This document shows, piece by piece, positions 4,401 to 58,365 of a stretch of DNA of 64,000 nucleotides. This stretch comes from a virus (taxonomy: Duplodnaviria > Caudoviricetes), in the IMG/VR virus record IMGVR_UViG_3300037067_012588. One strand, given 5' to 3'. The stretch's first letter is position 1; each line of letters starts with the position of its first letter. The notes under the pieces were generated by a model that saw nothing but the letters and a program-made list of their open reading frames with translations, did not search any database and had not been told where the DNA came from. A program made the position numbers and the translations under genes.

Positions 4401-7400
4401 GTCCTATCTGTCGAATCCTCAACTGCATCTGCCCAAGTGATTCCACCATCATTGCTGATAAAGAACCCATCCTGACGGCGAACGCCAAGAAGAGGAATCG
4501 CACCGACAGAAACTTCTTGACGAATTCCTTCAAAGCCTCTCTGGTCACGAATCACATCGAAATACGGACCAGAAATAGCCGATGAACTGAAGCTGGACGA
4601 TGAACGGCTCACTGAGGAACGACTCATCGATGAACTCGATTGCGAACTGAAACTACTCGATGAACTGCTTGAGCTGAAACTATACTGATTGTTTGTGTAG
4701 AACATCCCTACACCATCAGCATACACAAGAGAAGCATCTATATCCGAGAAAGCCTTATCGTATATAGAAACAGAATCGATACCTCCATTAAAATATTCCT
4801 GCCAAGCAGATGCCCATCGACCACGCCCTATATTGATATTTGCCAACTCATTTGCTGAATAGGATGTGAATGTGGTAGAACGCACCCCGTTTACAAAGAG
4901 CTTCAATACGTTTCCATCACGAACAGCCAAAATATGATGCCAACGTCCAACACCAACAGTCATCGCAGAATCGACACGAGAATAATTTGATGATCCAGTG
5001 TTTTCGTTCACATCAAGAATAACTTGATTATTTGGATTCAGCTTTATAGAAACAACAGGATATGCCGTCTCAGATGCAGCCGTGAAAATATACTGATACG
5101 ATGAACCATTTGTTTCTGGTTTCACCCACATAGATATTGTCCACTTCTGACCAAACTGATATTCGGAACCCTGCATGTATGTGTCTGTTCCGTTGAACCT
5201 TGCGGCTCCGCCATTCTTTCCAACAATATCACGAACAACATTTGGTGATACTGTTAATTCCATTGTACCAATACTATCAAGCTCGTTACCCGTCTGCCCT
5301 TCAAGTTCCCAAAGGTGAACAAGACCATCAGCCATCGACAATGATTCAGAAGACGATGAACTTGAAACAGAAGACCAAGAAGAACTCGAACTGCTTATCG
5401 AGCTGTGCGAATACGATGATGAACTGAACGAGTTTGAAGAAGATTCTCCAGGCTCCAAGAACACACGGAAAGCATACTCTCCATCTTCATCGCCCTTATA
5501 AGTCGACACCCATGTCGTCCCGCCGTCATAAGTCGTAAATAATCCATCTTTCTTGGCAACCAAATCCCAATAAACAGGAGTTGACTCCATCTTTGAATCA
5601 GGACGGAATGGAGGTTCGTTCGTTTCAAGAATGAAATGCTGTCTCTGTTTCACCGAACCTGAAGAAAAACTGTTCGATGAACGACTAATCGACGATGAAG
5701 ATGACATAGAACTGAATGACATCGATGAACTGCTCTTCGAAGAACGTGAGCTACTCGATAAAGAAGTTGACGGCAAGGTATCTGTTGTGAACACCTTCCA
5801 CTGAATAGCATCAACATCATCGCTCGTCGCTTCAACCCATGTCATACCACCATCAAGAGAGACAAATCTTCCCTGTTGTTTTGCTGCAACCTGAAGTCCA
5901 GCATTCAAAACAGCATCAAGCTCGTTTTTCTTTCCAATGAAATTTCTTCTTGGGTCAACTTCCGCATTCATGAACAGGTCACGGAGAACCATACTGTTCG
6001 ATGAACTCGATGAACTACTGAAACTCGAACTGCTAAAACTCGAAGACGAACTTGAACTAGATGAACTTGAGCTATATGATTGAGAATAAGCAGGAGCTTC
6101 GTTGATTGTTCCGTTTCTGTAATATGTCCCGTTGGCGTAAATTGTTCCTCCACCCGAAACAATCACAGCATCCAAAGCAACATTGTAGGTCAACGTCGGA
6201 ACAGGCTCTGTACCAATCCCAAGTGTCTCCCAAATAGCGGCAACGGCTCCCTCGATGTCTTTGCCATCATAAGATGTCTTGTACCACTTGATCCCATTCT
6301 CTGGTCCTGTTCCAAGATACCAAGACAAACCAGGTTCATACCACAAACCAACACCACCAGAGTTTGGAGATGATGAAGAAGAAATCGATGACCATGAAGA
6401 ACTTGAACTGCTGAAGCTCGAAGAACTACTCGAACTTGAAGATGAACTTGAAGATGTCCACATGTCCATAGCAGTCAAGTTATTCCAACAAGATGTCCAT
6501 CCTGTTCCAATACCTTCCGAAAGCATCTGGGCGTATCCAGAGAAAGGAAGCAGAGACAATGTAAACGTAAAATCTCCAAATACTGTCCAAAGGTCTCCAT
6601 CAACGAGTTTATACCACGCCCGAATACGTTGACCGTCTCTACGGAAGCGCAACGTAACTGGTCCAACAGGAACGACACCTGTTACCTCGCCATTCCACCA
6701 ATCTGTTGATCCATATCCCCAAGAGGTTTTCATGGATAAGTCAAAACCCACACCATTTCCACGAATCTCAACTTTGGCATAGTAAACTTCGTCAACATAA
6801 TAAGCCAATGTCGCAACGCTTCCTATATCGATAGCTGTCTCTGCAGAAATCTGCATATCCCAGTCTTGATGCAACGGACGACGCCACTGAATTCCGTAGG
6901 CATTATCACTCCATCCCAAACCATCATGTTTCAACTCACCGTTAAATTCATTCGGAGTTTGACAATCCCAACAAGTCGAAGTATCCATCGAACCATTCGA
7001 TGGATGAATGATTTCAAAATCTGCCAAGTCACAGAATGTATAGTAGAAAATCGGATACTGTGAAGACGACGAGGAACTCGACGGAGAACTTGATGACACT
7101 GATGATCTTGAACTTGACGATGAGCTACTCGATGTTGAATCGTCAATATTAAAAATATAAACCCCGCCGCAATTTTCATGAGTACCATCATCATACCCAG
7201 TTGTTCCAGCGAATACTTCCTTACCAAGAATCTCCACAGCCCATCCAAGGTTTTCACTTGCACTTCCTGTCAAATCTTGGCAAAGCCCACGCTCAACCCA
7301 AACTCCACGAGAATTCTTTGAATCCTTGAATAGATATACAGCTCCAATGCCACCTTTTTTGTATGACCCAACAGCAACTTGGAAGTTGTCTATCGCAACA

Positions 7401-14914: not shown

Positions 14915-17068
14915 TTATATTGAATATGACCAATCAGATGTATTGATGTAATTCTTGGAAAGCCAATCCAGTTCAGTTCTTGCGTTGTTCTCGGCATACC
15001 ACCCATCACCCCAAAGCGAAGCAATTCTTTGGAAATATGCCTCATACATGTCTGTAACACGCTCGACACTATAATTCTCAGCCGACCACTTGCGACAATT
15101 TTCTGGTTTCAACTTGTCTGCATTTTTTGCCGCCCAAACAAATTCCTCAATCGTTCTGCATCGATAACCTGTTACTCCATGGAGAACAGTTTCCGTATTC
15201 CCCGTCAAAACAATGTTCCCACCCAAGCGAGCCGTCCAAGTATGGAGTTCCGTAGAAGGACACCAAACATCTTCAGTGCGGACTTCTCCTTTTTTCAAAC
15301 GAGCAGGGGTAATAAAAGGATTGCAAAGGCTTACCACACAGTTTTTTGTTCCCTTGTAAACCCCATGAACATTTTTTGTTGGTCGGAACCCACATAAGTA
15401 AGCACACAACTCAATCGCATCACAAATCGGACCAGCATTTTGCGAAATTTGAACCGTTGATCCTTTTGACGCCTTCCACCCTTCTGCGTTAATACAAGCC
15501 TGAAGAAAAGACAACCGAGCCTCCGAAGACAACCCCAAGACAAAGCCAAACAACCCACGAACATGAACCTCTGCTTTTGCAAACAATTCTCGAACAAAGC
15601 CCGGATCAATCTGAAACACTTTTTTCGGAAGACAGCTAGACGGAGCTTTCCCTTTCCTCTCAGAATGAGGGACGCCAGTCAAAACACTCCTGATTTCTTC
15701 AATCCCATCTTTCTTTGATTGATAAATTTTCGCCTTACCAATCATTTCCGGGGAATCGACACCGTCAACAAAGTTGCGATGTTTTCCGTTAACCATCACA
15801 GTTTCAATTCCACCATCAGTCATCAGCCAACCGATCAAAGCAGCTTCTTTTGCCGAAACACCCAAGTCCCCACCTTGAGCGACAACAGAAGTCGTCATAC
15901 TGTCACCAGAATTCAAACAGTTTTCAATTGCATCCAGCCTCCCAACGAACCGTGGGTTCTTGGGATTGTGTATCTTGTGCCTCATCACCCATCGATGACC
16001 ATCTGTCACACGAAACTTCCAATTCCTGTTCTTAAATTCTTGAGTCTTCTTGGACTTGAAGACATGAACGGCTGTAATCTTCGTCCATTTGTTCGTTCCA
16101 GACTCCTTATCGTACCCCAAAGTTTCATCTTCTCCGACCTTCACTTGGCTGTAATCAAGCCAACCTCGCTTTGTTAGAATCTGAGTTTCAGTAGGAACAC
16201 AGAAAGCTCCCCAATCAGATGTCAAAACAGGAGTTCCACAAAGCTGAGCCTCAACAGCAACACCACCAAACGGTTCAATGTAATACGTCGGAGCAAAACA
16301 AAACTGCGCCCCACCCATCAATCGTGCTCGTTCTTCTGGTCCAACACAACCGACGTGTTCAACATGAGAAGATGTAATGTTCAATTTCTCGTTCGGATTC
16401 ACCAAAGAACCCTGACCAGCGACAATCAGCTTCAAACCAAGACGCTTTGTCACCTCAACGGCAACATCCAAACCTTTCCGCTGAACAAGACGCCCAACAA
16501 ACAAGGCGTAATCGCCCTTCTTCTTTTGAAATGGGAAAGATTCAAGATCAAAATAATTCGGAATTACCGAGTCATACCAAATGCCGTTCGTAATACTTCT
16601 CTTTCCATAAACCCAATGCATCCAAGCATAGGATTCAAAAACCTTGAAGGAAGAAAATACTCCCTCGTATCCAATGCCTGACTCGACAGCCAACAATCCT
16701 GTTCCTTGAGCAATAGGTTGATGCCAACAACCCATAGGACAAAGGAGAATATCGTTCTTCTCTTTCCGCTCATTGATAGCATTGATGGCATTCTTGTTGA
16801 ACGCTGTGTAAGCAGCATCACCACCATCGAGTTTAAAGAACTCCTTCTTCATATCGTATTCGCCATAACAGGCAACACGATCTTTTTCATCAAGCACTAC
16901 AATTGACTCATCACAGTCAACCTCAGACCCTTCAACCCCATAAAAGAAAACCTTGTGTCCTTTTGAACGCAACATCTTTCCAAGTCGAACAATCTTGTTC
17001 GTATAAGCACATTGAGAAAACTTCTTATGTGTCGCAAGATGAGCCAATCCAAGTAAATGAAAACGCAT
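14915..17068 (-). CDS. GT4 (GT-B fold) glycosyltransferase interrupted by an intein
   Basis: GT4 motifs LFVGRLVQRKG and EPFGGVAVEAQLCGTPVLTSDWGAF|TETVLHGVTGY; an insertion splits the last motif. Confidence 0.9.
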   Translation of the reverse strand: MRFHLLGLAHLATHKKFSQCAYTNKIVRLGKMLRSKGHKVFFYGVEGSEVDCDESIVVLDEKDRVACYGEYDMKKEFFKLDGGDAAYTAFNKNAINAINERKEKNDILLCPMGCWHQPIAQGTGLLAVESGIGYEGVFSSFKVFESYAWMHWVYGKRSITNGIWYDSVIPNYFDLESFPFQKKKGDYALFVGRLVQRKGLDVAVEVTKRLGLKLIVAGQGSLVNPNEKLNITSSHVEHVGCVGPEERARLMGGAQFCFAPTYYIEPFGGVAVEAQLCGTPVLTSDWGAFCVPTETQILTKRGWLDYSQVKVGEDETLGYDKESGTNKWTKITAVHVFKSKKTQEFKNRNWKFRVTDGHRWVMRHKIHNPKNPRFVGRLDAIENCLNSGDSMTTSVVAQGGDLGVSAKEAALIGWLMTDGGIETVMVNGKHRNFVDGVDSPEMIGKAKIYQSKKDGIEEIRSVLTGVPHSERKGKAPSSCLPKKVFQIDPGFVRELFAKAEVHVRGLFGFVLGLSSEARLSFLQACINAEGWKASKGSTVQISQNAGPICDAIELCAYLCGFRPTKNVHGVYKGTKNCVVSLCNPFITPARLKKGEVRTEDVWCPSTELHTWTARLGGNIVLTGNTETVLHGVTGYRCRTIEEFVWAAKNADKLKPENCRKWSAENYSVERVTDMYEAYFQRIASLWGDGWYAENNARTELDWLSKNYINTSDWSYSI
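15197..16201 (-). mobile_element. Intein (335 aa) with LAGLIDADG-type homing endonuclease
   Basis: Starts CVPTETQILTKRGW; block B VTDGHRW; LAGLIDADG-like LIGWLMTDG and FLQACINAEG; ends DVWCP...VLTGN followed by Thr(+1). Confidence 0.9.
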
Positions 17069-17690: not shown

Positions 17691-22424
<4,734 letters not shown>

Positions 22425-22449
22425 AACTATTTTCTCCTCTCGGAATTAT

Positions 22450-25400
22450 TTAAAACAGAAGAGTGACTCGACAATTCAAACCTGATCCTGTTCCCGTGAT
22501 AGATGGAGCCAAATCAAGAATCATTTCTGGACCAGGAACACCTCCAGCCGTTGTTGCCGATGACATGACAACTGTTGACGGATAACGATAACGCCATGTT
22601 GTCGCCGTTGCCTGACCACAGAAGATAACTCCACGACATGGCTTACCCATCGTATGGGTAATTGTGATGGCTGTCGTGCTTGGTGTACCAGCCACATACG
22701 TCCAATCCGCAGGGAAATCTACAGGAGGTGTTGCTCCAGGATTTGTTCCTGAGAATGCAACGGTGAACGTCACATCCTTCAAGTTCGTATCACCAATAAG
22801 AACAACACCAGTTGTTGAACTCGTTGCCACCAAAATCTGTTTGGCAAAGTTCTGTGGCTCAGTCGCAACAAGAGCACCAGCCGATGTATCAGACAACCAA
22901 TACAAACCTCCAGCCGTCAATCCTGTCAAACCTGAAATCTTTCCACGATAAACAATCGTGAAATCATCACCTGCAACATTCGAAACAATACCAACAGCCC
23001 TTGAACCAATCAAAGCCGTCGGTCCACCAGAACTTGCAGCGGCTGCAAGAGCCTTCACCCATGCTGTTCCGTCATAACGAATAACATCCCCAACAACTAA
23101 TCCATGACCAGATTGAGTTATTGTCTCTGCAATCGTCTCACCACTTCCACTACCCCCAGAAGGACCTGTTGCACCCATTGGACCAGTAGCGCCCGTCTCG
23201 CCTGCTCCTGTAGCTCCTGTCTCACCAGCAGTACCTTCTGGCCCAGTAGCACCAGTAGCCCCATCTTCACCAGCAGGACCAGTCAAGCCCTGAATGCCTT
23301 GAATGCCTTGTGGGCCAGTCAAACCCTGTTCACCCTGCGGACCAGTCGCACCAGTAGCACCATCTGTACCATCTGCGCCATTTGCACCAACAGGCCCAGT
23401 AGCCCCTGTCTCGCCTGCTCCAGTTGCACCAATAGGACCAGTCAAGCCCTGAATACCCTGTGGCCCAGTGGCCCCAGTCTCGCCTGCCCCTGTAGCCCCA
23501 ATAGGACCAGTGGCCCCTGTTGCACCAATTGCACCATCTGTCCCTGCAGGCCCAGTAGCACCTGTTTCACCTGCACCAGCAGGACCAGTTGCTCCTGTCG
23601 CACCATCAACACCCGCAACTCCATCTGCACCAGTAGCACCATCTGCACCCGCAGGCCCAGTCGGACCAGTTGCACCAACAGAAGGACGAGCCGCCAAAGC
23701 TTCGATTGCCGTTTGGACTGTCTTCGGAGTTCCTGCCAGCAAAGCGATGGTGTTATCAAACCCAACACCCTTCGCAATGGTCAGATAATTAGGAACCATG
23801 TTCCCAACAACCGTTCTTCCTGCATAAAGAAGCTGTGACATTGTTTCAGCATCAGCATAAACGTTTGTATTTCCAGAACCTGTTCCAATATTGATAATCG
23901 CTGATGTTGGAATCGCACAGTTCGTCAAACCAGAATAACTTGACCCATCAACCGATACGGCTGAGAATGTAATAGAACCAGTTGCTGTTCCACCAGCGGT
24001 CCTATCAAATCCACCCTGAATACGACTTGAATCAATTTCAAAAATAGTCGCAGTCGGTCCAATGATTGACTTCATTTGACAACTGTGAGCCTTAATACCA
24101 AAAGTGTCTCCAGACAAACCACCCATATATCCATTCTCAATCGCAGAAGCATTTGCTTCAATAACAAGAGCACTTGTCGTTCCAGAAGCTTGCGGCAAAT
24201 CCTTCGTCTTTGTCATACCATTGCGAATGTTTGCATGGTCGATTGTGATATAACTGTTTCCAACACGAACCTGCCACTGCTCTGTTGGAGCTGAGTTGAA
24301 ATGTTGATTTACAGCACCCATGATGATAATACTATCTGCTGAAAACGCTGCTTCAACACCAGAACCTTCACCAATAATATCGAGAGTTGGAGAAGCATGA
24401 TTTGCTCCATCCGACCACGGACGTGCTAGAAATGCGTGCATCGGATAACTTGGATGAACTTTGAAATCATCACCGTAAGGCAAATCAGCCGTATCAAAAA
24501 TCCAGCGAACATTACCCATAATCCGAACACCCGTTCCAAGAAGAGCAACACGGGCTCGACGAATGTTAATCAAAACATCATTCGGTTCAGTTTCTGTTCC
24601 TTCTTCCGTATATACACCAGGAGCAAGATCGAGAACAATCTTCTCAGCACTCCATGTGTAAATACCTTCTTCTGTCGAAGGAGCAACAGGAATAGAAAGC
24701 ATAGCAGCGTTGATGTTCTTGAATGGCTTCGACAATGTTCCATCAGCCGTCGCATCATCACCAATTGTCGAATTGACATGAATCGTACTATCCGAAACAA
24801 CCGAACGATTCTTCAAAGACTCAAGAGCATCCTGAACATTGTTCGGACTTCCTGGCAACTGAGCTATCGTGTTGTCGAAGAAAGAATCCTTCGCAGTCAA
24901 CGGACCCTTGGGTTTTCCTCCAACCCAAAGTCCACTCATATCACCCAACTTGATGAACAACGGCGCACTAACACCGTTAATCGGATCATCTGTACTCATT
25001 TCTCCAGCAACGGTTGACGACAGATAAACATATGATCCAACATCACCAACAGGCATCGGAATAGAAAGAATTGGGGCAATCGGACGCATTCTGAATCGGT
25101 CTGGACCAGGAACTGTCGTTTCTGTCACGATGCCAACAACCCTACCATTCCCAATCGTATCAGCCTGAGCCTTTACATAGCCAGAAGACGTAATACCAAT
25201 TGCATCTCCAACAGAAAAACCATGTGCTACTTGGTCAACATAAACTTCATTGATTGCTTCTGATTTGAAAAACCGACAAACAACCTCACTGACAAATGTC
25301 AGAGCCATCGAAGCAGGAAGAGAAGGCAATGGGAAGATAACAGGAAGTCCATCTTTCATCTCAAAAAGGATGCCTGATCCTTCAGTAATAAATCCACTTC

Positions 25401-25752
25401 CCTGTCCAACTTGATCGTCAGCTTGGAAGGTATTCTCTCGATTGTAATCTTCAAGATCGAGTGTGAATGGTGAATATGGATCGGAAATCTCCCCTATCGC
25501 TGCAACCTTAAGAAACCTACCAAAGGCCATTGTTGTCAGAATATCACCAACCTTGATGTCGAGAGCGTTATAAACATACGGTTCTCTCGTCAAGTGACTA
25601 CTATGAAGCTGCGCCGAAACAGACGCAGTAACACGCCACTTGACAGGAAATCCAATCCATGGATCTCCTGTACCGTCATCGTTCGTCCAAGTCTCCACAA
25701 TCTCTGCGTTGGAAATTGTCAATTGAAGAATTTTTGCTGGAATATACGACAT
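22450..25752 (-). CDS. Collagen-like fibre protein, paralogue 3
   Basis: 1100 aa: shared N-terminal module, GATGP-rich collagen segment, a second internal copy of the HGxxVGD..KA..A..GIV..YxLS..G module, and a C-terminal module shared with 25831..27255. Confidence 0.85.
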
Positions 25753-25788
25753 GGCAAGCTCCTTTCAGAAGCATAGAATTCAAAGGAA

Positions 25789-25816
25789 CTCGGAGGGTCA
25801 GTTTTGACCCTCCGAG
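25789..25816 (-). terminator. Putative intrinsic terminator or intergenic hairpin
   Basis: Perfect 12-bp stem CTCGGAGGGTCA-GTTT-TGACCCTCCGAG, followed on the minus strand by TTCCTTT. Confidence 0.6.
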
Positions 25817-25830
25817 CAGAGCCATAACAC

Positions 25831-27255
25831 TTAGAACTGAACCAAGACCTTACAGATATTTCCCGAACCTGTTCCCGTGACCGAAGGAGCAACATCAACA
25901 GTGAATGATGTCGTGCTGATAACACCAGCAGAATCAGGAACGAAAGAAATTGCAACCGTTGTAGGAACACGAACATACCAACGGCCATTGGTAACACTCT
26001 GACCAAGGAAACTCACAAACTTCGGATGAGTTCCCATCGTGTGAGTGAATGTAACAGAAGTCGAACTCGGCGTACCAACCGAATATCCCCAACCAGCAGG
26101 AAGATCAACAGGAGGTGTTGCGCCAGGAACAGCACCAGCAAACTGCACAGAAATTTCCGTAACACCACTTCCACCGCCACCAGAAGGACCTGTTGCACCC
26201 ATTGGCCCAGTTGCACCCGTTTCACCAGCACCTGTGGCCCCAACAGGCCCAGTCGCACCAGAAGATCCAGCCGTACCAGCAGGACCAGTTGCACCATCTG
26301 CCCCAACAGGACCAGTTGCACCAGTAACTCCTGCTCCTGTGGCTCCAACAGGCCCAGTAGCACCTGTAGCACCATCTGCGCCATTTGCGCCAACAGGCCC
26401 AGTGGCCCCTGTTTCACCTGCCCCAGTTGCACCAATAGGACCAGTCAATCCCTGAATGCCCTGTGGCCCAGTAGCACCCGTTTCACCCGCACCTGTAGCC
26501 CCAATCGGTCCAGTCAAACCTTGAATACCCTGTGGCCCAGTTGCTCCTGTTTCACCCGCACCAGCAGGACCAGTAATACCTTGTTCACCCTGAATACCCT
26601 GCGGCCCAGTGGCTCCTGTTTCACCAGCACCTGTAGCCCCAATAGGCCCAGTCGCTCCCATCGCCCCATCTGCACCATTTGCACCTACAGGACCAGTTGC
26701 GCCAGTTTCACCTGCCCCTGTAGCCCCAATAGGCCCAGTGGCCCCTGTCGCACCAATAGCGCCATCTGCGCCCGCAGGCCCAGTAGCACCTGTAACACCT
26801 GCACCAGCAGGACCAGTTTCACCAATAGGGCCAGTAAAACCTTGAGCTCCATTTGTTCCAGACGGCCCAGTAAAACCTTGAATACCCTGAATACCGACAG
26901 GTCCCGTAACACCTGTTGCGCCATTTGTTCCAGCAGGCCCAGTCATACCCTGCGGACCAGTCGGCCCTGTCGCACCATCTCCACCTTCGCCACCCGTTCC
27001 TGTGTCACCAACTTCATTCTCGGAAATTGTTCCTACGAGCGTGCAAAGCTGCTTCCACGAACCCGCACGGAAGTCACCAAGAACTGAACGACCATTCACT
27101 ACGAGACGCTGAGAATTCTCAGACTCGTAAATGAAATGTCCAGCCTGAACACGAGCGATTTTTTCAAAATCAGCCTCTGGCTTCAGATAATTGATGATGT
27201 CCGACATCATAAACGCTTTGTTCGCTTGCCATTTCAACATGAGATATTCCTCCAT
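25831..27255 (-). CDS. Collagen-like protein (GAT/GET-rich)
   Basis: 474 aa with about 270 aa of Gly-X-Y; C-terminal [13 protein letters not shown]...THTMG is paralogous to 22450..25752. Confidence 0.85.
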
Positions 27256-27300: not shown

Positions 27301-29301
27301 TTACCTTCCACGAAAAACCGTTTGCTTCAAAATACTCTCAGGACCACTCAACTGCGGAACCTGCGAATAATTCTCATCTTTCAAATAGTCCAATATCGCC
27401 TCATGGGCTTTCATCCAATCAATATTTTTGTCCTTGTCAATCGTCACTTTCAGAGCAGCAGTCATTGCACCATTGTATTGTCCACCAATAAAAGCATCAG
27501 CAGATGTCTGATTGTCACGGCAACCAGAAAGAAGAAGATGACGTGTTTTGAAAAAAGCGATATTGGAAGCCGACCTTGGACCAAACAAATCCTTCCAACC
27601 AACACGATTCACTGGAAGATTTCTGTTCCTCGAACGCACAGCAATATCAAAAGGAGGTTTCAAATAACGAACCTTCACGGGATGTGGATTACCAATAGGC
27701 ATCGCACGATCCATACTTCCAGAATGACAGTTATGAACAAAAACTCCAGAAGACAAGGCAAAATTGTGAAACTCATCAACAGTTAAATCATAAACAACCT
27801 CTGTTCGACCAGTATCTTCAACTCTGACAACCTTATGATTATTTGGACAACAAAACTCACAATCCTCTTTAACCAATCCACGTTTTTCATGCCAACGAAC
27901 ATGGTTTGTTTTTCTTGTTTTCAAGACACCTTCTGGACTTGAAGCATATTCTTTTGAACTTGCAGACATTTTTTCACGCAACTCTTGATTCTCCCAGTTT
28001 GCCTTCGAAACATTCCTTGACCTCTCTCTTCCTTCTTCAGACTTATTCATCTCTATAAAACGTTTTGAATTTTCAGAATTATCACGATTCTGAGCAGCCT
28101 CCACATGAATACGGCGATATTCCTCGTCTTTCCAACACTCACGAACCAATTCAGATTGAAGCCTGCAATACTCTTCGCTAGACCTCCATGCACGATAATC
28201 AGGATCACTCCAAACCTTTTTGAAATTCTTCCTGCCAACCTCTCCATGAATACGCTTGTGGTCGTACCACGTCATCATTTTGAGGTTTTCTGGACGATTA
28301 TCCCTCTTATTGAAGTTCGAATGATGACAAACACTCTTTCCTTCAGACATATCCATCCCAACAGCATCTCTCATAGCAATATGGGTAGGACACCAACGAC
28401 GTTTCCCATTTTCTTGGTTTGTTGTTTGAACAAACTCATATCCCTTCAAATAACTACTATCAGTGCTACGCCACTCCCGACGATATAATGGCATCAAAGA
28501 ATCACCCTCTACCAAATCTCCTGCCTCAACAAAAGACCCATCCCTCATCATAAAACGATGATCATCAGTACATTCAACAGACTCTCCATTATCAAGAACA
28601 ACCCGAATAAGCTTTCTTGTGCCAGTTATTCTTGCTGAGTGAGCACGACCAGGAACAACACGACCATCCTCCAAAGAAGAATAAACCCAATATTCTCCGC
28701 CATCCTTCTCCATCTCAGCAATCGTTTTTTCTGTTCCATCAAGTAACGGAATTTTCGTCGCTCCTGCAAGACATGCGTCGCACAGAAATGTCAAAAAAGC
28801 ACCTTCTGGAATACGACGGAAAAATCCTGCCAAAATCTTGTCCGTCAACGGATTATCCCAATCCATGTCGGTCGGACAAAGAATCTGACATTCCTCGTTC
28901 TCAAGAGTATCTTCGTTCCGACAACGAATAGATGAACCATGACCCGAATATTGAAACACCAACTGCGAACCAGGTTGTGCTGATGAAATCAACCACTCAA
29001 GACGCTCAAGAATGTTCTGCTGTGTTGCACGCTCATCACAAAGAACACGGATGTTGTCCTCTTCAAATCCATAATTCTTTGTCAGTCTGTCATAAATGTC
29101 GTTAACGTCATTTACACAACCATTTAAGTCAGAACCACTCAAAGCAACATACTTGTTAATCCCAACCAATACGGCAAAATTTTGAGGCATAATGCTTTCC
29201 TCCGTCGAAGAAACAACGACAACAGGAGCCGCTGTCACAGACTCCTGCGAAGACTTGAATATAGAAAGAATGAAGTTAAGAATGACTTTGAAAACTCCCA
29301 T
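27301..29301 (-). CDS. Caspase-family (peptidase C14, metacaspase/orthocaspase-like) protease containing an intein
   Basis: AVLVGINKY, LNGCVNDV, YSGHG (catalytic His), DA|CHSG (catalytic Cys after splicing), LSGCRDNQTSAD, GAMT. Start set at ATG 29301 (AAGGAG RBS); the ORF track begins at 29355. Confidence 0.9.
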   Translation of the reverse strand: MGVFKVILNFILSIFKSSQESVTAAPVVVVSSTEESIMPQNFAVLVGINKYVALSGSDLNGCVNDVNDIYDRLTKNYGFEEDNIRVLCDERATQQNILERLEWLISSAQPGSQLVFQYSGHGSSIRCRNEDTLENEECQILCPTDMDWDNPLTDKILAGFFRRIPEGAFLTFLCDACLAGATKIPLLDGTEKTIAEMEKDGGEYWVYSSLEDGRVVPGRAHSARITGTRKLIRVVLDNGESVECTDDHRFMMRDGSFVEAGDLVEGDSLMPLYRREWRSTDSSYLKGYEFVQTTNQENGKRRWCPTHIAMRDAVGMDMSEGKSVCHHSNFNKRDNRPENLKMMTWYDHKRIHGEVGRKNFKKVWSDPDYRAWRSSEEYCRLQSELVRECWKDEEYRRIHVEAAQNRDNSENSKRFIEMNKSEEGRERSRNVSKANWENQELREKMSASSKEYASSPEGVLKTRKTNHVRWHEKRGLVKEDCEFCCPNNHKVVRVEDTGRTEVVYDLTVDEFHNFALSSGVFVHNCHSGSMDRAMPIGNPHPVKVRYLKPPFDIAVRSRNRNLPVNRVGWKDLFGPRSASNIAFFKTRHLLLSGCRDNQTSADAFIGGQYNGAMTAALKVTIDKDKNIDWMKAHEAILDYLKDENYSQVPQLSGPESILKQTVFRGR
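27730..28773 (-). mobile_element. Intein (348 aa) with HNH homing endonuclease
   Basis: Starts CLAGATKIPLLDG; block B CTDDHRF; HNH motif VCHHSNFNKRDNRPENL; ends VYDLTVDEFHNFALSSGVFVHN followed by Cys(+1). Confidence 0.92.
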
Positions 29302-29369
29302 TTGTGTTCTCCTTGAAAAAGAGTACTCACAATAGAGAGTTATTAAAAAAAACATAAATCCGAGGGGGG

Positions 29370-29528
29370 TTATTTCTTCTTTTCACTGAGAATACTCGCA
29401 ACCCTTGCAACAATATTCGGAACCGACCTCTCATCCAAAAGAGAAGCGATAAGCATCAACTCAGCAGCAATTTCTTTTTTGCCGATTCTCTGTTGCCTCA
29501 TATTATCGGCTCTTTGTTTTTCTGACAT
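29370..29528 (-). CDS. 52-aa small protein carrying the shared ELxxIA tag (below the ORF-track cutoff)
   Basis: AAAGGAG RBS; MSEKQRADNMRQQRIGKKEIAAELMLIASLLDERSVPNIVARVASILSEKKK*; fills the gap between neighbours. Confidence 0.75.
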   Translation of the reverse strand: MSEKQRADNMRQQRIGKKEIAAELMLIASLLDERSVPNIVARVASILSEKKK

Positions 29529-29540
29529 AACTATTCTCCT

Positions 29541-30833
29541 TTAATCACGAAGCATCTTTTCGAAACTCTTAATGCCATGGCTTGTTGCGTCAAAATAATC
29601 ACCCGTGAATATTGCCCTATCACCAACAACTCTCATTTTTTCCATGTCACCCTCAAACTCAAAGGTTCCTCTGTCAGTATCAATAGAAACTTTGTATTTT
29701 TTTGGCCGCCATGACTTCAAAAAATCAAGAACAACATCACGAGGAATATCACCCTCATGCTTATCATAAATGTTTTTCAACTTAACAGAGAAATCAACTT
29801 TTTCCCTTACATAAACAGAATCTATATAAGCATCCCATGATGGGTCATCTCTTCCTCCATGTTGGGCTGGTTCTGCGTAATAATCTACATCTGCCTCTTT
29901 TGGATTCTGGTCAAACTGCTGTTCACTGAAGATTTCCTCAAGAGTATCTTCAAGAGCCTTATTTGTTCCATTCGCAACAATATTGCCTGCAATGCCAGCA
30001 ACACGCTCGCCAACAGAAGCCCATGTCGTAATCACTTCTGCCGGAACAGGGTCTTTCCTTGGGTCATAATTAACCACTGCAACTCCTTCTGGAAGCTTCA
30101 TCCGAACATTGTTTTCAGGCTTTTGTTCTCCACTCAAAGGATTCCTATCTAGGAAATTCTTCTCGTCAATAAAATCACATACCTCTTGAGACATCTCACT
30201 CGGGTCGACATCACGAAGCTCGGCACGATACTTCGCATGGTTCTTCCAATTCGTTTGACACCTCCTACGACCACCATCCAACATCTCTGTCTTGTTGAAG
30301 TTAACCCTGCGGTATAATCTCCCACTCTCGGCAAGGCTCAAATCATTTGGATGACGAAGCATCTCCAATTTATCAGACGGTGCAAGCAAAGTATTCTGGA
30401 TACGTTCAACAACATTCTCAACAGACGCCGTAACCCTTTCACTCCTCAACTCAGAATACAAGGCATCAAAGTCACCAGCGCCCCATCCCTTGAAGTTGTT
30501 GAACTCTCTTGAAACAACATGGTCAATATCACGAACAGTTCCACGACCACGAGCAAGCTCACCTATCGTGTTAATAACAGACGCACGATCCTGAATGTTC
30601 TCCAGCTTTGTCCTCAAAATCATCCGAAGCAAACGAGCCTTCTTTTGCATATCTCGCTTGTCCTGAAAGTCGCCCTCTGGAACAAACGCTATGAGCCTTG
30701 CAATATTGGCAAGCTCGTTAGCGACCTTTATGGACTTCCATGGTTCTTTAAACATAGTGACATTCTCCCACTCTGGACGGTCCTTAAGCTGATACAAGAT
30801 ATCATGCTCGGACTGATCATCAAACAAAGGCAT
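29541..30833 (-). CDS. Hypothetical modular protein with three copies of the shared tag
   Basis: VANELANIARLIA, ASVENVVERIQNTLLA, ASVGERVAGIAGNIVA. Confidence 0.75.
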   Translation of the reverse strand: MPLFDDQSEHDILYQLKDRPEWENVTMFKEPWKSIKVANELANIARLIAFVPEGDFQDKRDMQKKARLLRMILRTKLENIQDRASVINTIGELARGRGTVRDIDHVVSREFNNFKGWGAGDFDALYSELRSERVTASVENVVERIQNTLLAPSDKLEMLRHPNDLSLAESGRLYRRVNFNKTEMLDGGRRRCQTNWKNHAKYRAELRDVDPSEMSQEVCDFIDEKNFLDRNPLSGEQKPENNVRMKLPEGVAVVNYDPRKDPVPAEVITTWASVGERVAGIAGNIVANGTNKALEDTLEEIFSEQQFDQNPKEADVDYYAEPAQHGGRDDPSWDAYIDSVYVREKVDFSVKLKNIYDKHEGDIPRDVVLDFLKSWRPKKYKVSIDTDRGTFEFEGDMEKMRVVGDRAIFTGDYFDATSHGIKSFEKMLRD

Positions 30834-30844
30834 GATAAAACCCC

Positions 30845-32287
30845 TTACCTGTGAACTTCTTCCAGGAACGAAACAACATCTGGACTCAACTTATTTGTTG
30901 TCCAAAATGAAAACAACTCCGCATACCACTCCGAATCACTCTTAGTTGAATACGGTGTCGGAAAATATTTGCTAAAATCCACATCGGGAAGCCTCTTCCC
31001 AACAATCTCAAATTCTCCTGTCAGAAGCATAATCAACGGAGAAGTATAGGTACTGCCAACAGACTTCTCTCTGCGCCCTCCAGCCTTTATTTTCTTGATT
31101 CGTATCTTTCTCTCATATGGAATATAGCTTATAAACTCGTATTCATCACCCTTCGATGGACCCATTTTATCAATCAGGATGTCTCCCTCAACCAAACCCA
31201 AATCTTCAAATTTAGGAAGTTTGTGTCTCTTGTCATAAAAGGTCTGAGAAACAAGAGACCGAGCATCTCTCGACATAAACTTGTTCATATCCCTATGCGC
31301 AAGCTCATGAAGAAACGCACGAACATCTTTCCCATCTAACCCTTGAAGCTTCTTCACACCAATACGCACCAAATCACTAGAGGTAGAATAGTCTGCCAAA
31401 CGATTCCCCGCAAGAGAACCAATCATCAACACTTTCCCACCTGACAAATATCCAAGACCCTTCGAAGCCAACAAATGAGACACAATATCCAAAAGCTTCT
31501 TGGCTTCTTCCACATCAAACTTGATTCCTTTTTCAACTTGAATATCCCAATTGTCATACTTGAAGTTTGAAAGCATCACCTCGTCAGAGTCTTCCTCGAT
31601 AACATCAACTGGACCAAATAATCCAACAAAACTTTCTGGATGCATTTTTTCCTTCAAAACAAAGAACTCTAACAACCTATTCTTTGACGAGAAATCCTTC
31701 TCGCTCTTCGTCACAATACGAGCAATATTTGAATCCTCAAACTTCCCATCCCTTATGTCTCTTGGCAACCGATAAGTCAAACTCTTAACGTATCTTTTTG
31801 CAAGACTCTCACGTTCAGTTTTCATGTTATATAACGCAGAAAGACCATCTGGAGTAAAATTCGTCAAAACATCACCAACAGAATCAGCAAAAATCTCCTT
31901 AGTCATTTCTGTTCCAACTTTTTTCTCTACGGCCTTCTTCGATGCTATCTCGACCAAATGATATTTTCCACCATTTTCGGTAACAACAAACTTCGGCCAA
32001 TTCCCGACACCAAAAAGAACAATACCATTGTTCAGTTTAATAAAATTGTATGCAAAAATCAATTTCGCAATCTTCATCAGCTCACTCGCAACAATTGACC
32101 TTACCGAAGCTGTCTTGCCGTCTACTTGATTCGCTGCACTATACCCTATCGCAAAGCATGAACCCTCATCCTTACCAGACTCATAGGCACTGTTAAAAGC
32201 ATGTACAAAAGCCCGCTGAGCCTTCGCACTGTACTTCGAAAGATTCGGATGGCTCTTCACTGCCTCAGCAGCACTATCAAACGGCAT
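30845..32287 (-). CDS. ChaB-like N-terminal domain + tag + zincin (HExxH) metallopeptidase-like domain
   Basis: MPF...KAQRAFVHAFNSAY...DE.SCFAIGYSAA is ChaB-like; FLHELAH and PTPYSTKSDSEWYAELF are zincin motifs. Confidence 0.7.
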   Translation of the reverse strand: MPFDSAAEAVKSHPNLSKYSAKAQRAFVHAFNSAYESGKDEGSCFAIGYSAANQVDGKTASVRSIVASELMKIAKLIFAYNFIKLNNGIVLFGVGNWPKFVVTENGGKYHLVEIASKKAVEKKVGTEMTKEIFADSVGDVLTNFTPDGLSALYNMKTERESLAKRYVKSLTYRLPRDIRDGKFEDSNIARIVTKSEKDFSSKNRLLEFFVLKEKMHPESFVGLFGPVDVIEEDSDEVMLSNFKYDNWDIQVEKGIKFDVEEAKKLLDIVSHLLASKGLGYLSGGKVLMIGSLAGNRLADYSTSSDLVRIGVKKLQGLDGKDVRAFLHELAHRDMNKFMSRDARSLVSQTFYDKRHKLPKFEDLGLVEGDILIDKMGPSKGDEYEFISYIPYERKIRIKKIKAGGRREKSVGSTYTSPLIMLLTGEFEIVGKRLPDVDFSKYFPTPYSTKSDSEWYAELFSFWTTNKLSPDVVSFLEEVHR

Positions 32288-32302
32288 GAAAAATGTCTCC
32301 CG

Positions 32303-33550
32303 TTACCCAAAGAAATGCTCTGTCGCTTTCGAGTGATGACTTCCATCTTTAAGCCATGCAACAACATTTGAAGTCGCACTCAACGAACTATCTCCTCCGT
32401 CCCTTACCTTCTTCAACTCAGCAACAGACTTGACCAAATATGCCTGCAATCGCTCCAAGTCCTTCAAAAGAACTTCAGCCATTTCCTTGTCACTGCCGTT
32501 GCTTGCCAGAATGGCTTCATGAATGCTCTGAGCAACAACACCCCGACTCGATGCATTCTTGCCATCCATAACAACATAAATCTCCCAATGTGGAACAACC
32601 TCGCCATCCCTCGTCTCAGTCTTCAATCTATTCATCTCAACAACGTTGTTCGGATACTCCTTCTGGATAGCCTCATGAATACCCTTCGCCGCAAAATCTG
32701 TCGCATCAAAAAAATAAACAGTTCCGACCCTACCACCATTCGTCTTGCGACCTTGGGGTTTTGTTTGGACAGCCCTAACCGTACTCTGGTTCACATTGTT
32801 GAAAGACTTGATGATGCTAATCCACTTACTCCTGTTCATTTCTGCAACAAGGCTCTTCGCAATACGAACCAATTCACTCGCAACACCTTGAAAACCAACA
32901 GACGCAATCAAAACCTTATGTCCCTGAATTTTAATCTTCTTCTTTTTCAACAATGACTCCAACGAATCCAACAATCCATCATCCTCGGGAACAGGGTCGC
33001 CATTCGACAAAAACTCATTGTAATACTCAATTCGACGAGGCTGAGTCCTTATCATATCCAACACAGACTCCTCGTCCCAACGCTCCCATGACTTCTTGTT
33101 CATCAGAATCTCCCCAGCATAAATAACTTTCCCGCCAAAAAAAACAGTCCAATTCTTGGACATGGAATCATACCGATACGAATACTTATCAGATAAACTG
33201 AAAATCAAAGACCCCTGAGCGTGCTGGTCATCCACCGTCAACTCAAACGGACAACCATCAAACTCCCACTTTTTCCCAAATTGCTTCCAACCAGCCTTAC
33301 CCAAAAGCTTCGGAAGCAATACCTTGTTTTCTGTTGTCGCCAACCAGTCAAACCATACACCAGTCTTTGTCCCCATAGAACCACGCTTCTCAAGCTTAAT
33401 ATCAGAACCACCTATCGTTCCCAAAAAACGACCAATCCCCTTATCTCGACTCCCAATGTCGTTCCAAACCTGAACGCCAATATCGTTCCCACGACCCCTA
33501 CCATCTATCTTCAACACCGCAGACAAACTCTTCATCGAAATATTCCTCAT
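32303..33550 (-). CDS. Hypothetical modular protein with the shared tag
   Basis: ASVGFQGVASELVRIAKSLVA; start placed at the ATGA overlap with the upstream stop (ORF track 33610). Confidence 0.7.
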   Translation of the reverse strand: MRNISMKSLSAVLKIDGRGRGNDIGVQVWNDIGSRDKGIGRFLGTIGGSDIKLEKRGSMGTKTGVWFDWLATTENKVLLPKLLGKAGWKQFGKKWEFDGCPFELTVDDQHAQGSLIFSLSDKYSYRYDSMSKNWTVFFGGKVIYAGEILMNKKSWERWDEESVLDMIRTQPRRIEYYNEFLSNGDPVPEDDGLLDSLESLLKKKKIKIQGHKVLIASVGFQGVASELVRIAKSLVAEMNRSKWISIIKSFNNVNQSTVRAVQTKPQGRKTNGGRVGTVYFFDATDFAAKGIHEAIQKEYPNNVVEMNRLKTETRDGEVVPHWEIYVVMDGKNASSRGVVAQSIHEAILASNGSDKEMAEVLLKDLERLQAYLVKSVAELKKVRDGGDSSLSATSNVVAWLKDGSHHSKATEHFFG

Positions 33551-33924
33551 CGAATATTGTAAGTCGTTTGGGAACCATCTGTCCCTTTCAAACGAAACTT
33601 CGGACTCCACTTCCCACGCAAATGCTCCTCAAGTCCCTCTATAGGAGTACTATTAACAATTATTTTGCAGGTCGTTACATAAAATGAACCACGAAACTTC
33701 CCCAACCTCAAATCCACACTCGCAAGAGGAATCCCCATACTCTTCAAATCAGATATCAAATCAGCCTGCAGCTTCGCCTGAGATTGCTTCGATAAACGGT
33801 CCTTCACAATCTTCATCTTCTCACGCATGTCCCAAAACTCACCCTCAAACTCAGTCTGAGGACGCTCCTTACCAGCTACCAACAATCGGGCTATCGAAAG
33901 TAAAGAAGCTGCAACATACTTCAT
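33547..33924 (-). CDS. Hypothetical protein with the tag at its N-terminus
   Basis: MKYVAASLLSIARLLVA; GAGG RBS; overlaps its neighbours by ATGA. Confidence 0.7.
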   Translation of the reverse strand: MKYVAASLLSIARLLVAGKERPQTEFEGEFWDMREKMKIVKDRLSKQSQAKLQADLISDLKSMGIPLASVDLRLGKFRGSFYVTTCKIIVNSTPIEGLEEHLRGKWSPKFRLKGTDGSQTTYNIR

Positions 33925-34247
33925 ATCCCATTCCTCTTCTTGAAAAGATCATCTGCTATCTTGAAGTCTGGCCAACTTTCCATCATCATCCCAACCATCT
34001 GCCCAGCCAACATCTGATCCTCTGGCAATTCATACCGATACCGCCCCATACCACCAACAAAATACAACGCCATCTCTTCAAGACATGAACCATCCTCAGA
34101 CATCTTCGGCGCAACCTCAATAGACATACCAATCCCAAGGTGAAACTCCACCCCAGACTCAAAAGGATAAACCTTCCCAATAGCATCACGAGCCAAAAAT
34201 GCTGCCCTATCCACCAATCGCTGAATGTCTTCGTCCATGTCGTTCAC
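33921..34247 (-). CDS. Hypothetical protein
   Basis: 108-aa ORF in a tightly packed operon. Confidence 0.6.
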   Translation of the reverse strand: MNDMDEDIQRLVDRAAFLARDAIGKVYPFESGVEFHLGIGMSIEVAPKMSEDGSCLEEMALYFVGGMGRYRYELPEDQMLAGQMVGMMMESWPDFKIADDLFKKRNGI

Positions 34248-34250
34248 CTA

Positions 34251-34922
34251 TCAACGAATTTCACGCCAACCTGCATGACTTCCTTCGTCAAAATGACTAT
34301 CACGAATAACCATCTTCTTCTGTCCAAACTTGTCAACGATAATCCAAGAACCAAGCTTTCTGCCTTCCCACAAAACATCCTTGATAAAATCGGTCGATAA
34401 CCCATCAAAATGAGCAAGAATATCCCCAACCAAAGGCATAGAACGCTCTTTCTCTTGCACCGACTCAATCAGCATATCCAAATCACGACGAACAGAGTTA
34501 AACAATGACAAGACATTAGAAGAAATACCAAACCTCTGACGCATTTCCGAGGTCAAAGAATCAAGAGACTTACGCAACCCAACAAAATCAGATACCAATA
34601 TATTCGTTTGAATAATCTTTGCTATACGAAACAACTCTCTTGCAACCTTTTTTGTCTTCATTATTTCCTCAGCTCTGTCAAAAAAAATTGCAGCAACATC
34701 ATGGTAGTTTTCATCCTCAGCAGCAAGACCACGCCTCCATGCCTTTGCAGCATCTGTTATCGAATGAGCCATTGCCTTTGCCAATGTCAAAAGCTTGCTC
34801 TTGAAATCTCCACCCTTCGAAGCTTTCTCTACCATATCGCTTATTCGCTTATAGTCTTTCGACTCAGACAGAAGAGCCTTACGCCCATAAATCTCCTCAA
34901 GCTTATCTTCCAAATTCATCAC
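34251..34922 (-). CDS. Hypothetical protein with the shared tag
   Basis: KKVARELFRIAKIIQT; AGGAG RBS. Confidence 0.7.
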   Translation of the reverse strand: MMNLEDKLEEIYGRKALLSESKDYKRISDMVEKASKGGDFKSKLLTLAKAMAHSITDAAKAWRRGLAAEDENYHDVAAIFFDRAEEIMKTKKVARELFRIAKIIQTNILVSDFVGLRKSLDSLTSEMRQRFGISSNVLSLFNSVRRDLDMLIESVQEKERSMPLVGDILAHFDGLSTDFIKDVLWEGRKLGSWIIVDKFGQKKMVIRDSHFDEGSHAGWREIR

Positions 34923-43731: not shown

Positions 43732-44862
43732 TTACTTTATATCGTCCCGACCGCAAATTTCTGGCCAATTTGGCATGTCAAATTTCGTCATCGGACAACG
43801 ATCAGACGAAAGAAGCAAAGCTGTCGGGTCAACCATATAGTCGGGCATCTCTTCATCGAGCCCACCCCAGCAAGACGACACAGACGTTCTGCCGTGCTTG
43901 TAAAGCTCCAAGTGCAACATCGACCTCGAATGCCCAGGAACATCTGGTCGCTCCCTACCTTCTCTCACTACAGCACTTACACGCCCCACAAGGCACCCAC
44001 GACGCACTGTTTCACCAACATGTGGTGTTGCAAAGTCCTTTTTTATTTCTCCGTAGCACACAACACCAGACGCACCTTCAATAAGAATAGCATCTGTATC
44101 ATTCCACCAAGGCGAACCAGCAAGCTCTCCAGTGAAACGTTCGTATCCAATCACTCTGCCATCTTCGACAGCATAAACAGGAGAATCATCTTTGCAATAA
44201 AGGTCAACACCTGTATGAACGTCTTTCCTTCGCTTCGCCCCAAACGAACCAGGATGCGAGCCAATCGGAATACCAGAGCACTCATCTTTAGGTAAGGGGA
44301 ATATCCAAGTCAGCTCACCCTCAAGGAGTTTGGCGATATCACAAACATGTGCCATAGCCCCAACACCTTCATCGCCGCAAGCCAACGTTTTCATTACAGG
44401 CGGAACAACCTTCACCTTCGTACCGAGACTATATAGCTTGAGAATGTGTTCTTGGGTGAAAGGATTTGCCCACATCAACGAATTCATAGCTGGTGCAACA
44501 ATCACAGGTCGAACAAAATCCCAAGCCCTGAAAATGCTCGTAAGCAGATTATCGCAGATTCCATTCGCCATTTTGGCAAGAGTATTCGCAGAAAGCGGTG
44601 CGATAACAAATGCCCCGAATTCTTTTCGGATGTCGATATGCCGAACAGGGTCGCCACTCTTCTGCCAAACCTTGTTTCCGTTTGAATAATTCCACTCGTT
44701 TGAGTCACGCCAAACCTTGACGTTGATTTTTTCTGTTTCCAAAAAATACATAGCATTCTCAGTGGCAACGATTTCTACATCGCCAAGATGTGACAACGCC
44801 GAAACCATCTTGTGTGCCACGGTCGTTGCAACAGAACCAGTCAATCCAAGCAGAATCTTCAT
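43732..44862 (-). CDS. coaC: Phosphopantothenoylcysteine decarboxylase (HFCD flavoprotein) fused to an M23-peptidase-like domain
   Basis: LLGLTGSVA, HI.IR, APLSANTLAKMANGICDNLL, PAMNSLMW, LACGDEGVGAM; C-terminal HTGVDLY...VYAVEDG.V...MLHLELY is M23-like. Confidence 0.85.
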   Translation of the reverse strand: MKILLGLTGSVATTVAHKMVSALSHLGDVEIVATENAMYFLETEKINVKVWRDSNEWNYSNGNKVWQKSGDPVRHIDIRKEFGAFVIAPLSANTLAKMANGICDNLLTSIFRAWDFVRPVIVAPAMNSLMWANPFTQEHILKLYSLGTKVKVVPPVMKTLACGDEGVGAMAHVCDIAKLLEGELTWIFPLPKDECSGIPIGSHPGSFGAKRRKDVHTGVDLYCKDDSPVYAVEDGRVIGYERFTGELAGSPWWNDTDAILIEGASGVVCYGEIKKDFATPHVGETVRRGCLVGRVSAVVREGRERPDVPGHSRSMLHLELYKHGRTSVSSCWGGLDEEMPDYMVDPTALLLSSDRCPMTKFDMPNWPEICGRDDIK

Positions 44863-45608
44863 TTCGAGGCCTTCCAGTTTTCATATTCCAACAAGATTTT
44901 ATCAACAACAATTTCAGCAATGTCACCATCCGACTTTGTATAACACGAACCACTACCACCACGATAAATCACGAGAACTCTGTGGTCATCGTTCTTGATG
45001 TCACGAAGGTCATTAGCAATGACCATGTCACAACCGTTCTTCTTGATGCTTTGCCTTGCAGCCTCAATCAGCTCAGAGTCCGTTGAACCCACAAGAAGCT
45101 TGAATCCGACAAGGAATGCGCTCGGACACTTCTTCTTGATACGACCAATCAACTTCGGGAGCTTGTGAAGCTGGATGGACATGTCTTCGTCTTTCGAGCG
45201 AATCTTGCCATTCATAGGCTTCGTGCCGTAATCCGAAACAGCAGCAGCGAGAACGATGATGTCAGGTGTATGCTCAACCTTCTTCTCATCAATCAAGTTA
45301 CACAAGTCTTTCGAGTAATCATCGAACGTCTTGTAATCGTATTGGTGATAGTTATCACCAAAATTCTCGCTGAACCAGCAAAGCTTTGCAAGAGCACCAA
45401 CAGCTTCTGACGGGCTGACCGAGTTGAGGTCAATGTTTGTAGAAAACGGTGTCTTAGAACCGCTTGCGCAAAGAAAGTCTACCTTTTGGTTGTTCTTCAG
45501 AAACCACGTTGCGAGCTTTGAGCCAAACGTTCCCTTAGACATATTGGCGATATGCCGAACAGTGTCAATTGGAATCTTAGTTCCGCCGCTGGTTACTAGA
45601 ACACGCAT
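44859..45608 (-). CDS. coaB: Phosphopantothenate-cysteine ligase (monofunctional)
   Basis: VLVTSGGT..PID.VR.I.N.S.G..G, AAAVSDY, LVGFKLL, VIANDL; GAGGAG RBS. Confidence 0.88.
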   Translation of the reverse strand: MRVLVTSGGTKIPIDTVRHIANMSKGTFGSKLATWFLKNNQKVDFLCASGSKTPFSTNIDLNSVSPSEAVGALAKLCWFSENFGDNYHQYDYKTFDDYSKDLCNLIDEKKVEHTPDIIVLAAAVSDYGTKPMNGKIRSKDEDMSIQLHKLPKLIGRIKKKCPSAFLVGFKLLVGSTDSELIEAARQSIKKNGCDMVIANDLRDIKNDDHRVLVIYRGGSGSCYTKSDGDIAEIVVDKILLEYENWKASK

Positions 45609-45635
45609 GTTAATTCTCCTCAGTACCAAAGGACT

Positions 45636-53731: not shown

Positions 53732-54469
53732 CTACAAACAACCAGAAAACATCTGATCTACCTCTTTGTCCATCTTTTCAACAGGATATACCTGAAGAGC
53801 CATTTTGGGCAATCGTCTAACGAAGAAAATAGCCATATTCGCATCCAGTGCGCCCCTGAAATAACCTTCCTCATGAAGCAGACGCCGATAGATGTTCAAC
53901 TGAAGGCTGTAATGGTTGAAATTGCAGTCATCCAGATGCTTCAGGAATCCGTTCCCACACTGGTATGTGTTCCCGAATTTGATTTCCTTGTTCGTCTTCC
54001 AGTCAAACACACATAGACGACCCTGCTTGTCCTTGAACAGCAGGTCTATAGTTCCTGCAAGCCGATACCTCGGGCTAAAGATAATCTTCTCAGATGCAAT
54101 GAAGCGATAGTTCTTCAAGAGGTCGTTGTCAATGAAATCCCCAACCGTCTTGAAACTTTTCTCATCTTGCTCATCGGAAGGATCAGGCAACGGATTCCCG
54201 AGCAGTTTTGCTTCGGCGAACTCATGAACCCTTGTTCCATATTCCGAGCCTTTGTTCTTTTTGTCTTCCCAATCCTTTTTGACATCTTCAACATTCAGGT
54301 TTCTTTTCGCAGCATATTTCTTTGCGACCCCTTCTGTATCGAACTCTGGAAAATGGTTGTGTATGAACCCAGTGACCGATGTGTAAACAACGCCCTGAGT
54401 GTCAATATACTTGTGGTCTTCCTCGGTGAAGGTGATAACCTCCCCCGATGGATGCTCAGCTTGTTTCAT
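53732..54469 (-). CDS. PD-(D/E)XK (RecB/Cas4-like fold) nuclease without an Fe-S cysteine motif
   Basis: H.Y...SVT...GTRVH...E...SE..I....LAGTIDLL...DWKTNK...YSLQL.IY; 3 nt separate it from the cas3 stop. Confidence 0.85.
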   Translation of the reverse strand: MKQAEHPSGEVITFTEEDHKYIDTQGVVYTSVTGFIHNHFPEFDTEGVAKKYAAKRNLNVEDVKKDWEDKKNKGSEYGTRVHEFAEAKLLGNPLPDPSDEQDEKSFKTVGDFIDNDLLKNYRFIASEKIIFSPRYRLAGTIDLLFKDKQGRLCVFDWKTNKEIKFGNTYQCGNGFLKHLDDCNFNHYSLQLNIYRRLLHEEGYFRGALDANMAIFFVRRLPKMALQVYPVEKMDKEVDQMFSGCL

Positions 54470-54472
54470 TTA

Positions 54473-56695: not shown

Positions 56696-56744
56696 AAAAT
56701 CTCCTTTTGCCGATAAAAGTCGCCACAGTATTTTTTATGCGAAG

Positions 56745-58130: not shown

Positions 58131-58365
58131 CTTACCGCTCTCAAATCACTACATATCAAACACTTACATAGCCACTTGCGAGCGCCTCATCAAAAAGACG
58201 AGGAATCACAAAATTTGTCATCGTTCGATTGTCAAAGAACTCTTCAAACCTATACACACCAAACACTTACAACTTTGCGAGCGCCTCAAACCCACAAAAT
58301 TCAGCACAACCATATAGCATCAAATCAGTTATGTTGAAATTTGTCTGGTTTCTCACAGACACCAA
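58131..58365 (-). promoter_or_regulatory. CRISPR leader with an IHF-like site and a duplicated motif
   Basis: TATCAAACACTTA (58154-58166) fits the IHF consensus WATCAANNNNTTR; TTGCGAGCGCCTCA occurs at 58176-58189 and 58275-58288. Confidence 0.75.

Follow-up and report, generated by a model that had tools for sequence, protein, structure and literature searches.

That inteins settle in the active sites of enzymes is textbook knowledge, as is the use of a His-Cys dyad by C14 proteases. The class-1 inteins with HNH nucleases that interrupt terminase, DNA polymerase, DnaB, GyrB and RtcB have in common a Cys1, a TxxH motif, a terminal His-Asn, a +1 Cys and the HINT fold, together with a nested endonuclease, insertion into a catalytic motif, a sporadic distribution, intein-free alleles and mini-intein derivatives. 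The intein described here shares these features, its nested HNH endonuclease being a putative one, but differs in that its host is a caspase-family protease and its +1 residue is the protease's own nucleophile. Inteins are commonly carried by huge phages (PMC12880540), and among proteases they are known from the Chlamydomonas eugametos chloroplast ClpP and from Lon, as cited in PMC5784728 and PMC10710043. As in the present case, the interrupted protease must splice before acting; however, ClpP and Lon are serine proteases of the ATP-dependent class, whereas the host considered here is a C14 protease with a Cys-His dyad, from a family that, unlike ClpP and Lon, carries inteins at four active-site positions. 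A further described system, the intein of P. abyssi MoaA, is redox-trapped by a CxxC disulfide (Callahan et al. 2011, as described in PMC10663303). Metacaspase genes of viruses have so far been mentioned as auxiliary genes only (bioRxiv 10.64898/2026.01.21.700432), and a full-text literature search for inteins in caspases, metacaspases or orthocaspases returned none. To judge from that search, neither caspase-family proteases as intein hosts nor the presence of several insertion sites within the family seems to have been reported before.

The window that we analysed is a 64,000-nt stretch of a Caudoviricetes virus (IMG/VR record IMGVR_UViG_3300037067_012588), and the open reading frame at 27301-29355 on its minus strand (684 codons plus stop, uninterrupted) encodes a phage metacaspase-like (C14) cysteine protease together with an intein. 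Peptidase_C14 is matched in two separated stretches of this frame (Pfam, E = 1.4e-20). The N-extein (residues 1-194; 28774-29355, minus strand), identified by Peptidase_C14 at residues 59-208, by invariant columns and by matches to solved metacaspases, runs from an amphipathic N-terminal helix through a low-complexity linker to a p20-like part that holds the catalytic His139 (codon 28939-28941), a CPTD motif (C160, D163) and Asp193. The C-extein (residues 543-684; 27304-27729, minus strand) begins with Cys543 (codon 27727-27729, minus strand) and supplies the CHSG active-site loop and a p10-like part with SGCRDNQTSADA; in sequence comparison it forms the second stretch that matches Mca1 and Yca1. 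Met19 is the likely start, having an AAGGAG Shine-Dalgarno sequence 7 nt upstream and coinciding with the aligned N-termini of homologues, and the protease spliced from there would contain 318 extein residues (calculated mass about 35 kDa). A blastn search with the gene against 50,697 phage records gave zero matches.

Several independent comparisons place the exteins among metacaspases. In an alignment with nine intein-free homologues, His139 (SGHG), Asp193 and Cys543 are invariant across the family, as are C160, P161, D163, Q616 and S618, while T617, A619 and D620 are at least 90% conserved; H139 and C543 align with the His-Cys dyad of Yca1 and Mca1. An intein-free relative (P0002) that is 86% identical to the window's joined exteins matches C. 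glabrata Mca1 (E = 1e-26), yeast Yca1 and Arabidopsis MC4 and MC9 by sequence, with both its p20-like (DxCHSG) and its p10-like (SGCxDNQTSADA) stretches aligned to solved metacaspases, and its AlphaFold model (pLDDT 87.6) matches Arabidopsis metacaspase 9 (AtMC9; Foldseek E = 6e-19). In a model of the precursor, both extein halves together align with AtMC4 (Z = 26.0). Compared with metacaspases (MEROPS C14B) of known structure (i.e., Yca1 4F6O, C. glabrata Mca1 7QP0, AtMC4 6W8S, AtMC9 8A53, T. brucei MCA2 4AF8 and bacterial GSU0716 3BIJ), the window protease shares the dyad in SGHG and DxCHSG, the CPxD and SGCxDxQTSAD motifs and the fold. It differs in being phage-encoded and in having neither a type I prodomain nor a long type II linker; instead, and unlike the solved enzymes, it has the conserved N-terminal amphipathic helix plus the low-complexity linker.

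Of 64 positions with a conservation of 85% or more among 42 intein-free homologues, the exteins retain 63, and comparison with the allele on L001, a 253-kb IMG/VR phage contig, gives a pN of 0.18 and a pS of 0.78 (synonymous sites being saturated), in line with purifying selection on the exteins. In TbMCA2 and Yca1, the S1 pocket is reportedly formed by the CPxD motif together with the Asp that stands two residues ahead of the catalytic Cys. Because both elements are conserved in the window protease, as a putative acidic S1 pocket, along with the p10-like SGCxDxQTSAD motif, the spliced enzyme is predicted to cut after Arg or Lys.

The alignment with the nine homologues resolves the interruption as one clean insertion (...FLCDA/CLAGATK...GVFVHN/CHSGSMD..., slashes marking the junctions). 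Residues 195-542 are missing from all nine and from some 110 further intein-free relatives, which come from an N-extein-only search among shorter proteins (120 proteins of about 270-360 aa, caspase domain only, with identities of up to 88%). The first-pass annotation had described a phage metacaspase split as DA/CLAG...VHN/CHSG by an intein at its catalytic Cys, the same Cys serving as the +1 splice nucleophile, and had placed the gene between fibre genes and a cluster of tagged proteins. The alignment confirms the split to the residue, the sequence, fold and motif matches uphold the identity of the protease, Cys543 does double as the +1 nucleophile, and the gene is indeed flanked by collagen-like fibre genes on one side and by a group of proteins with a short helical tag on the other; the end coordinate given there, 29301, coincides with the likely start at Met19.

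The inserted segment (residues 195-542, 348 aa; 27730-28773, minus strand) is a class 1 intein, delimited by script-placed boundaries and by matches to Pfam Intein_splicing (E = 2.1e-19) and to the NCBIfam models of intein ends, which exceed their cut-offs (intein_Nterm/intein_Cterm; TIGR01445, 37.5 bits, and TIGR01443, 26.1 bits). Its signature consists of Cys1 (C195), block B T263-x-x-H266, block F VYDLTV...HNFA and block G His541-Asn542. In an alignment of 26 same-site inteins, C195, T263, H266, the VYD and HNFA of block F, H541-N542 and C543 are invariant; Cys543 is invariant in the caspase alignment as well and aligns with the DxCHSG Cys of solved metacaspases. The precursor model contains a HINT fold (residues 195/197-542) whose nearest solved counterparts are the Mtu RecA intein (Z = 19.0, 140 residues, rmsd 2.4) and the Npu DnaB intein (Z = 18.4, 135 residues, rmsd 1.8), while sequence identity to solved inteins is low (best PDB sequence match, E = 2e-6). 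An HNH homing-endonuclease motif occupies approximately residues 303-376 (28228-28449, minus strand; PHROG 7545, E = 7e-14) and is followed by a helical region at residues 377-505; Pfam HNH_3 scores below threshold (18.8 bits, cut-off 24.8), and H344, H345, N353, N357 and H366 of the motif are invariant across the 26 same-site inteins. The GC content of the intein (0.408) equals that of the exteins (0.409 and 0.427), so there is no compositional sign of recent arrival. The intein looks splicing-competent from its residues, and the constraint on the exteins suggests that it does splice.

We consider it likely, from the sequences and models combined, that a working metacaspase gene of a huge uncultured phage has been invaded by a selfish, site-specific HNH homing intein, and that this intein is neutral baggage rather than a regulator. 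Excision would follow the standard class-1 route: Cys195 would attack the carbonyl of Ala194, the thioester would pass to Cys543, Asn542 would cyclise, and formation of an Ala194-Cys543 bond would restore the DACHSG active-site loop, such that Cys543 could pair with His139 as the catalytic dyad only after splicing. During co-infection, the HNH nuclease would be expected to cut intein-free caspase alleles, into which the intein would be copied. Two properties would favour the Cys site: no other DNA in the gene is as conserved, and imprecise loss from it would kill the enzyme.

The selfish nature of the intein is indicated by its absence from the nearest exteins, its patchiness, the monophyly of the inteins at this site, the existence of mini-inteins and the presence of relatives in other genes. 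In a sample in which intein-free alleles close to that of the window are over-represented, the nearest exteins (86, 76, 75, 66, 63 and 57% identity) all lack an intein, and the best intein-bearing extein is at most 51% identical. On the extein tree (142 rows), the window extein is sister to the intein-free P0002 (SH-aLRT 99) in a four-row clade (99) whose other members are intein-free, and the Cys-site label requires at least 13 changes, at least 7 of which are forced by well-supported branches, gain and loss being indistinguishable on the trees. On the intein tree (81 rows), all 26 Cys-site inteins form one clade (100) and 10 inteins inserted after the catalytic His form a separate clade (93); both clades are embedded among inteins of unrelated host proteins. 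Partners whose exteins are 36 to 50% identical to those of the window have inteins that are 55-60% identical to its own. At a broad scale, the intein subclade matches the extein clade, a pattern that old vertical inheritance with many losses could possibly also produce.

The L001 contig carries an intein-free allele with gene order kept on both sides, where the tagged proteins again lie upstream and the collagen-like fibres downstream. Three mini-inteins lack the HNH region (P0163, P0258 and P0261), and a fourth protein (P0123) has lost it partially. Other members of the family interrupt an Aphanizomenon phage dCTP deaminase, a Rhodobacter phage DNA polymerase, a terminase (L015), gyrase B, RtcB and papain-like proteases, and one is present in Bacillus phage SP-15. 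A scan of bacterial and archaeal genomes with intein-derived search patterns gave more than 571 matches to the family; among the best 80 of these, a caspase with this intein is found only on a 3.3-kb contig binned to a Woesearchaeota MAG, the rest being in other genes. The family has no further copy in the window. An intein unrelated to it, the second in the window, is located at approximately 15197-16201 (minus strand) within a glycosyltransferase gene (ORF 14915-17068); it begins with CVPTETQ, contains a LAGLIDADG-like LIGWLMTDGG segment and ends with LTGN followed by Thr, and the L001 homologue of this frame matches the glycosyltransferase part only (84% over 280 aa).

The first-pass annotation inferred that the precursor is inactive until spliced and that this could act as a conditional switch. 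On an adaptive view of that idea, the intein would be kept because it holds the protease as an inactive zymogen until a signal, possibly the reduction of a Cys192-Cys195 or a Cys195-Cys543 disulfide, permits splicing, thereby timing proteolysis in infection. In keeping with this proposal, caspase-family enzymes are usually made as zymogens, and the insertion separates the catalytic Cys from the remaining active-site loop. With a 40-kDa domain interrupting that loop, the precursor very probably has no activity; however, the same holds for every intein in an active site. The N-terminal junction is also spanned by a CxxC (C192-D-A-C195), as in MoaA, which makes conditional splicing chemically possible: according to PMC10663303, the P. 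abyssi intein is kept from splicing by a disulfide that links an N-extein Cys to Cys1, and the window intein similarly has an N-extein Cys within three residues of its Cys1. Unlike in MoaA, this nearby Cys is present in the caspase family regardless of the intein. A Cys occurs at -3 or -1 in 71 of 113 intein-free alleles (63%) and in 16 of 28 intein-bearing ones (57%), and such similar frequencies argue that the junction Cys is a caspase feature and not an adaptation to the intein. Intein-free homologues in the same genomic context, which the first-pass annotation had named, together with constitutive splicing, as what would make the intein simply selfish, are found both as the closest exteins and as the syntenic L001 allele. 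The conserved HNH motif would serve mobility rather than regulation, and decay to mini-inteins has taken place. With the nearest exteins free of inteins, the junction Cys not enriched and the marks of a mobile element present, the proposal is left without specific support, and we regard a regulatory role as unlikely. It is quite unlikely that the intein has been co-opted as a gate in which Cys195 would remain in a disulfide with Cys192 or Cys543 until late infection, after which the spliced protease would trim the neighbouring tagged proteins at the Lys/Arg preceding their shared helix.

If the intein had instead lost the ability to splice, the caspase gene would be effectively inactivated in the window phage. 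Since none of its neighbours is conserved across 66 loci, the gene could in that respect be called non-essential, but the splicing residues (C195, T263, H266, H541, N542 and C543) are intact, the reading frame is uninterrupted and all but one of the 64 conserved extein positions are kept, which makes such a dead end very unlikely. That an assembly chimera or mis-join produced the apparent insertion might be entertained for a metagenome-type sequence, but is scarcely credible given that the insertion keeps the reading frame and has canonical intein ends that delimit it to the residue, and that at least 27 other database proteins, stemming from different projects, show the same architecture independently. 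A selfish homing intein in a working protease gene is the reading that we retain.

Inteins are not confined to one position in this protease family. At least 35 metagenomic clusters (90% identity) combine Peptidase_C14 with Intein_splicing, and intein-bearing caspases come almost only from metagenomic, phage-sized contigs. Insertions occur directly after the catalytic His (SGHG/S; L002, L003 and 12 proteins), before the catalytic Cys (Dx/CHSG, the site used in the window; 28 proteins including the window's), before the Cys of CPxD (DExx/CPxD; P0235, P0287, P0289 and P0290) and, with an intein of the LAGLIDADG type, at DE/CL (P0123). The last of these proteins (1029 aa) has two inteins, a 466-aa LAGLIDADG-type element at DE/CL and an HNH-family element at the catalytic Cys whose endonuclease is partly deleted. 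In two database proteins (P0302 and P0334), the window's HNH-intein family resides in papain-like (Peptidase_C1) cysteine proteases.

These observations add caspase-family proteases to the list of intein hosts, though the mechanism itself is ordinary, and four sites in one protease family constitute a compact natural data set on how homing inteins choose sites and jump between them. An intein whose +1 nucleophile is the catalytic Cys is a possible template for engineered splice-activated proteases. The annotation of such genes, now labelled 'intein/homing endonuclease' or 'hypothetical', can be corrected, and metacaspases emerge as widespread stand-alone genes of huge phages.

The surroundings of the gene say little about its substrates. 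Among the 66 caspase loci, even the most frequent companion family occurs next to the caspase in no more than 6, L001 alone shares synteny with the window, and guilt by association indicated no substrate. What does recur, in otherwise unrelated frames flanking caspase genes, is a helix tag of approximately [K/R]-x-(V/I)A-x-EL-x-x-IA-(K/R)-x-(L/I), which in many cases stands at the very N-terminus and in many cases follows a Lys/Arg (window 29370-34922; L001 7339-9794; L010 9313-12323; L003 1433-2571; L004 8840-9238). In all frames of at least 40 aa from 68 loci plus the window, the strict pattern has 10 matches, all in five caspase loci, against a chance expectation of about 0.2 (a rough by-hand estimate for a slightly smaller set of frames). 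The tag-bearing proteins could be metacaspase substrates, which the Lys/Arg before the tag would fit, or the tag could be a targeting signal; its recurrence may equally reflect the shared ancestry of caspase-bearing phages. Whether the protease matures virion proteins or cleaves defence proteins, as the first-pass annotation offered, is a matter of pure inference.

Downstream of the caspase gene, the fibre cluster extends over 1430-9982 and 17691-27255 of the window and encodes a protein of 2850 aa that combines FG-GAP with Laminin_G_3 repeats, as well as three proteins with collagen-triple-helix repeats (1577, 1100 and 474 aa). Elsewhere in the window, a split CoaBC-like pair (43732-45629) consists of a Flavoprotein (CoaC-like) domain fused to an M23 peptidase-like domain and of a separate DFP (CoaB-like) gene. 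The phage also bears a type I-C-like CRISPR-Cas system at 53732-62008, comprising a Cas4-like PD-(D/E)XK nuclease (53732-54469), a Cas3-like helicase (54473-56695), Cas7 (58366-59298), Cas8c/Csd1 (59361-61373) and Cas5 (61364-62008), along with two short repeat arrays (57169-57349 and 57602-57845) whose palindromic repeat is about 36 nt long.
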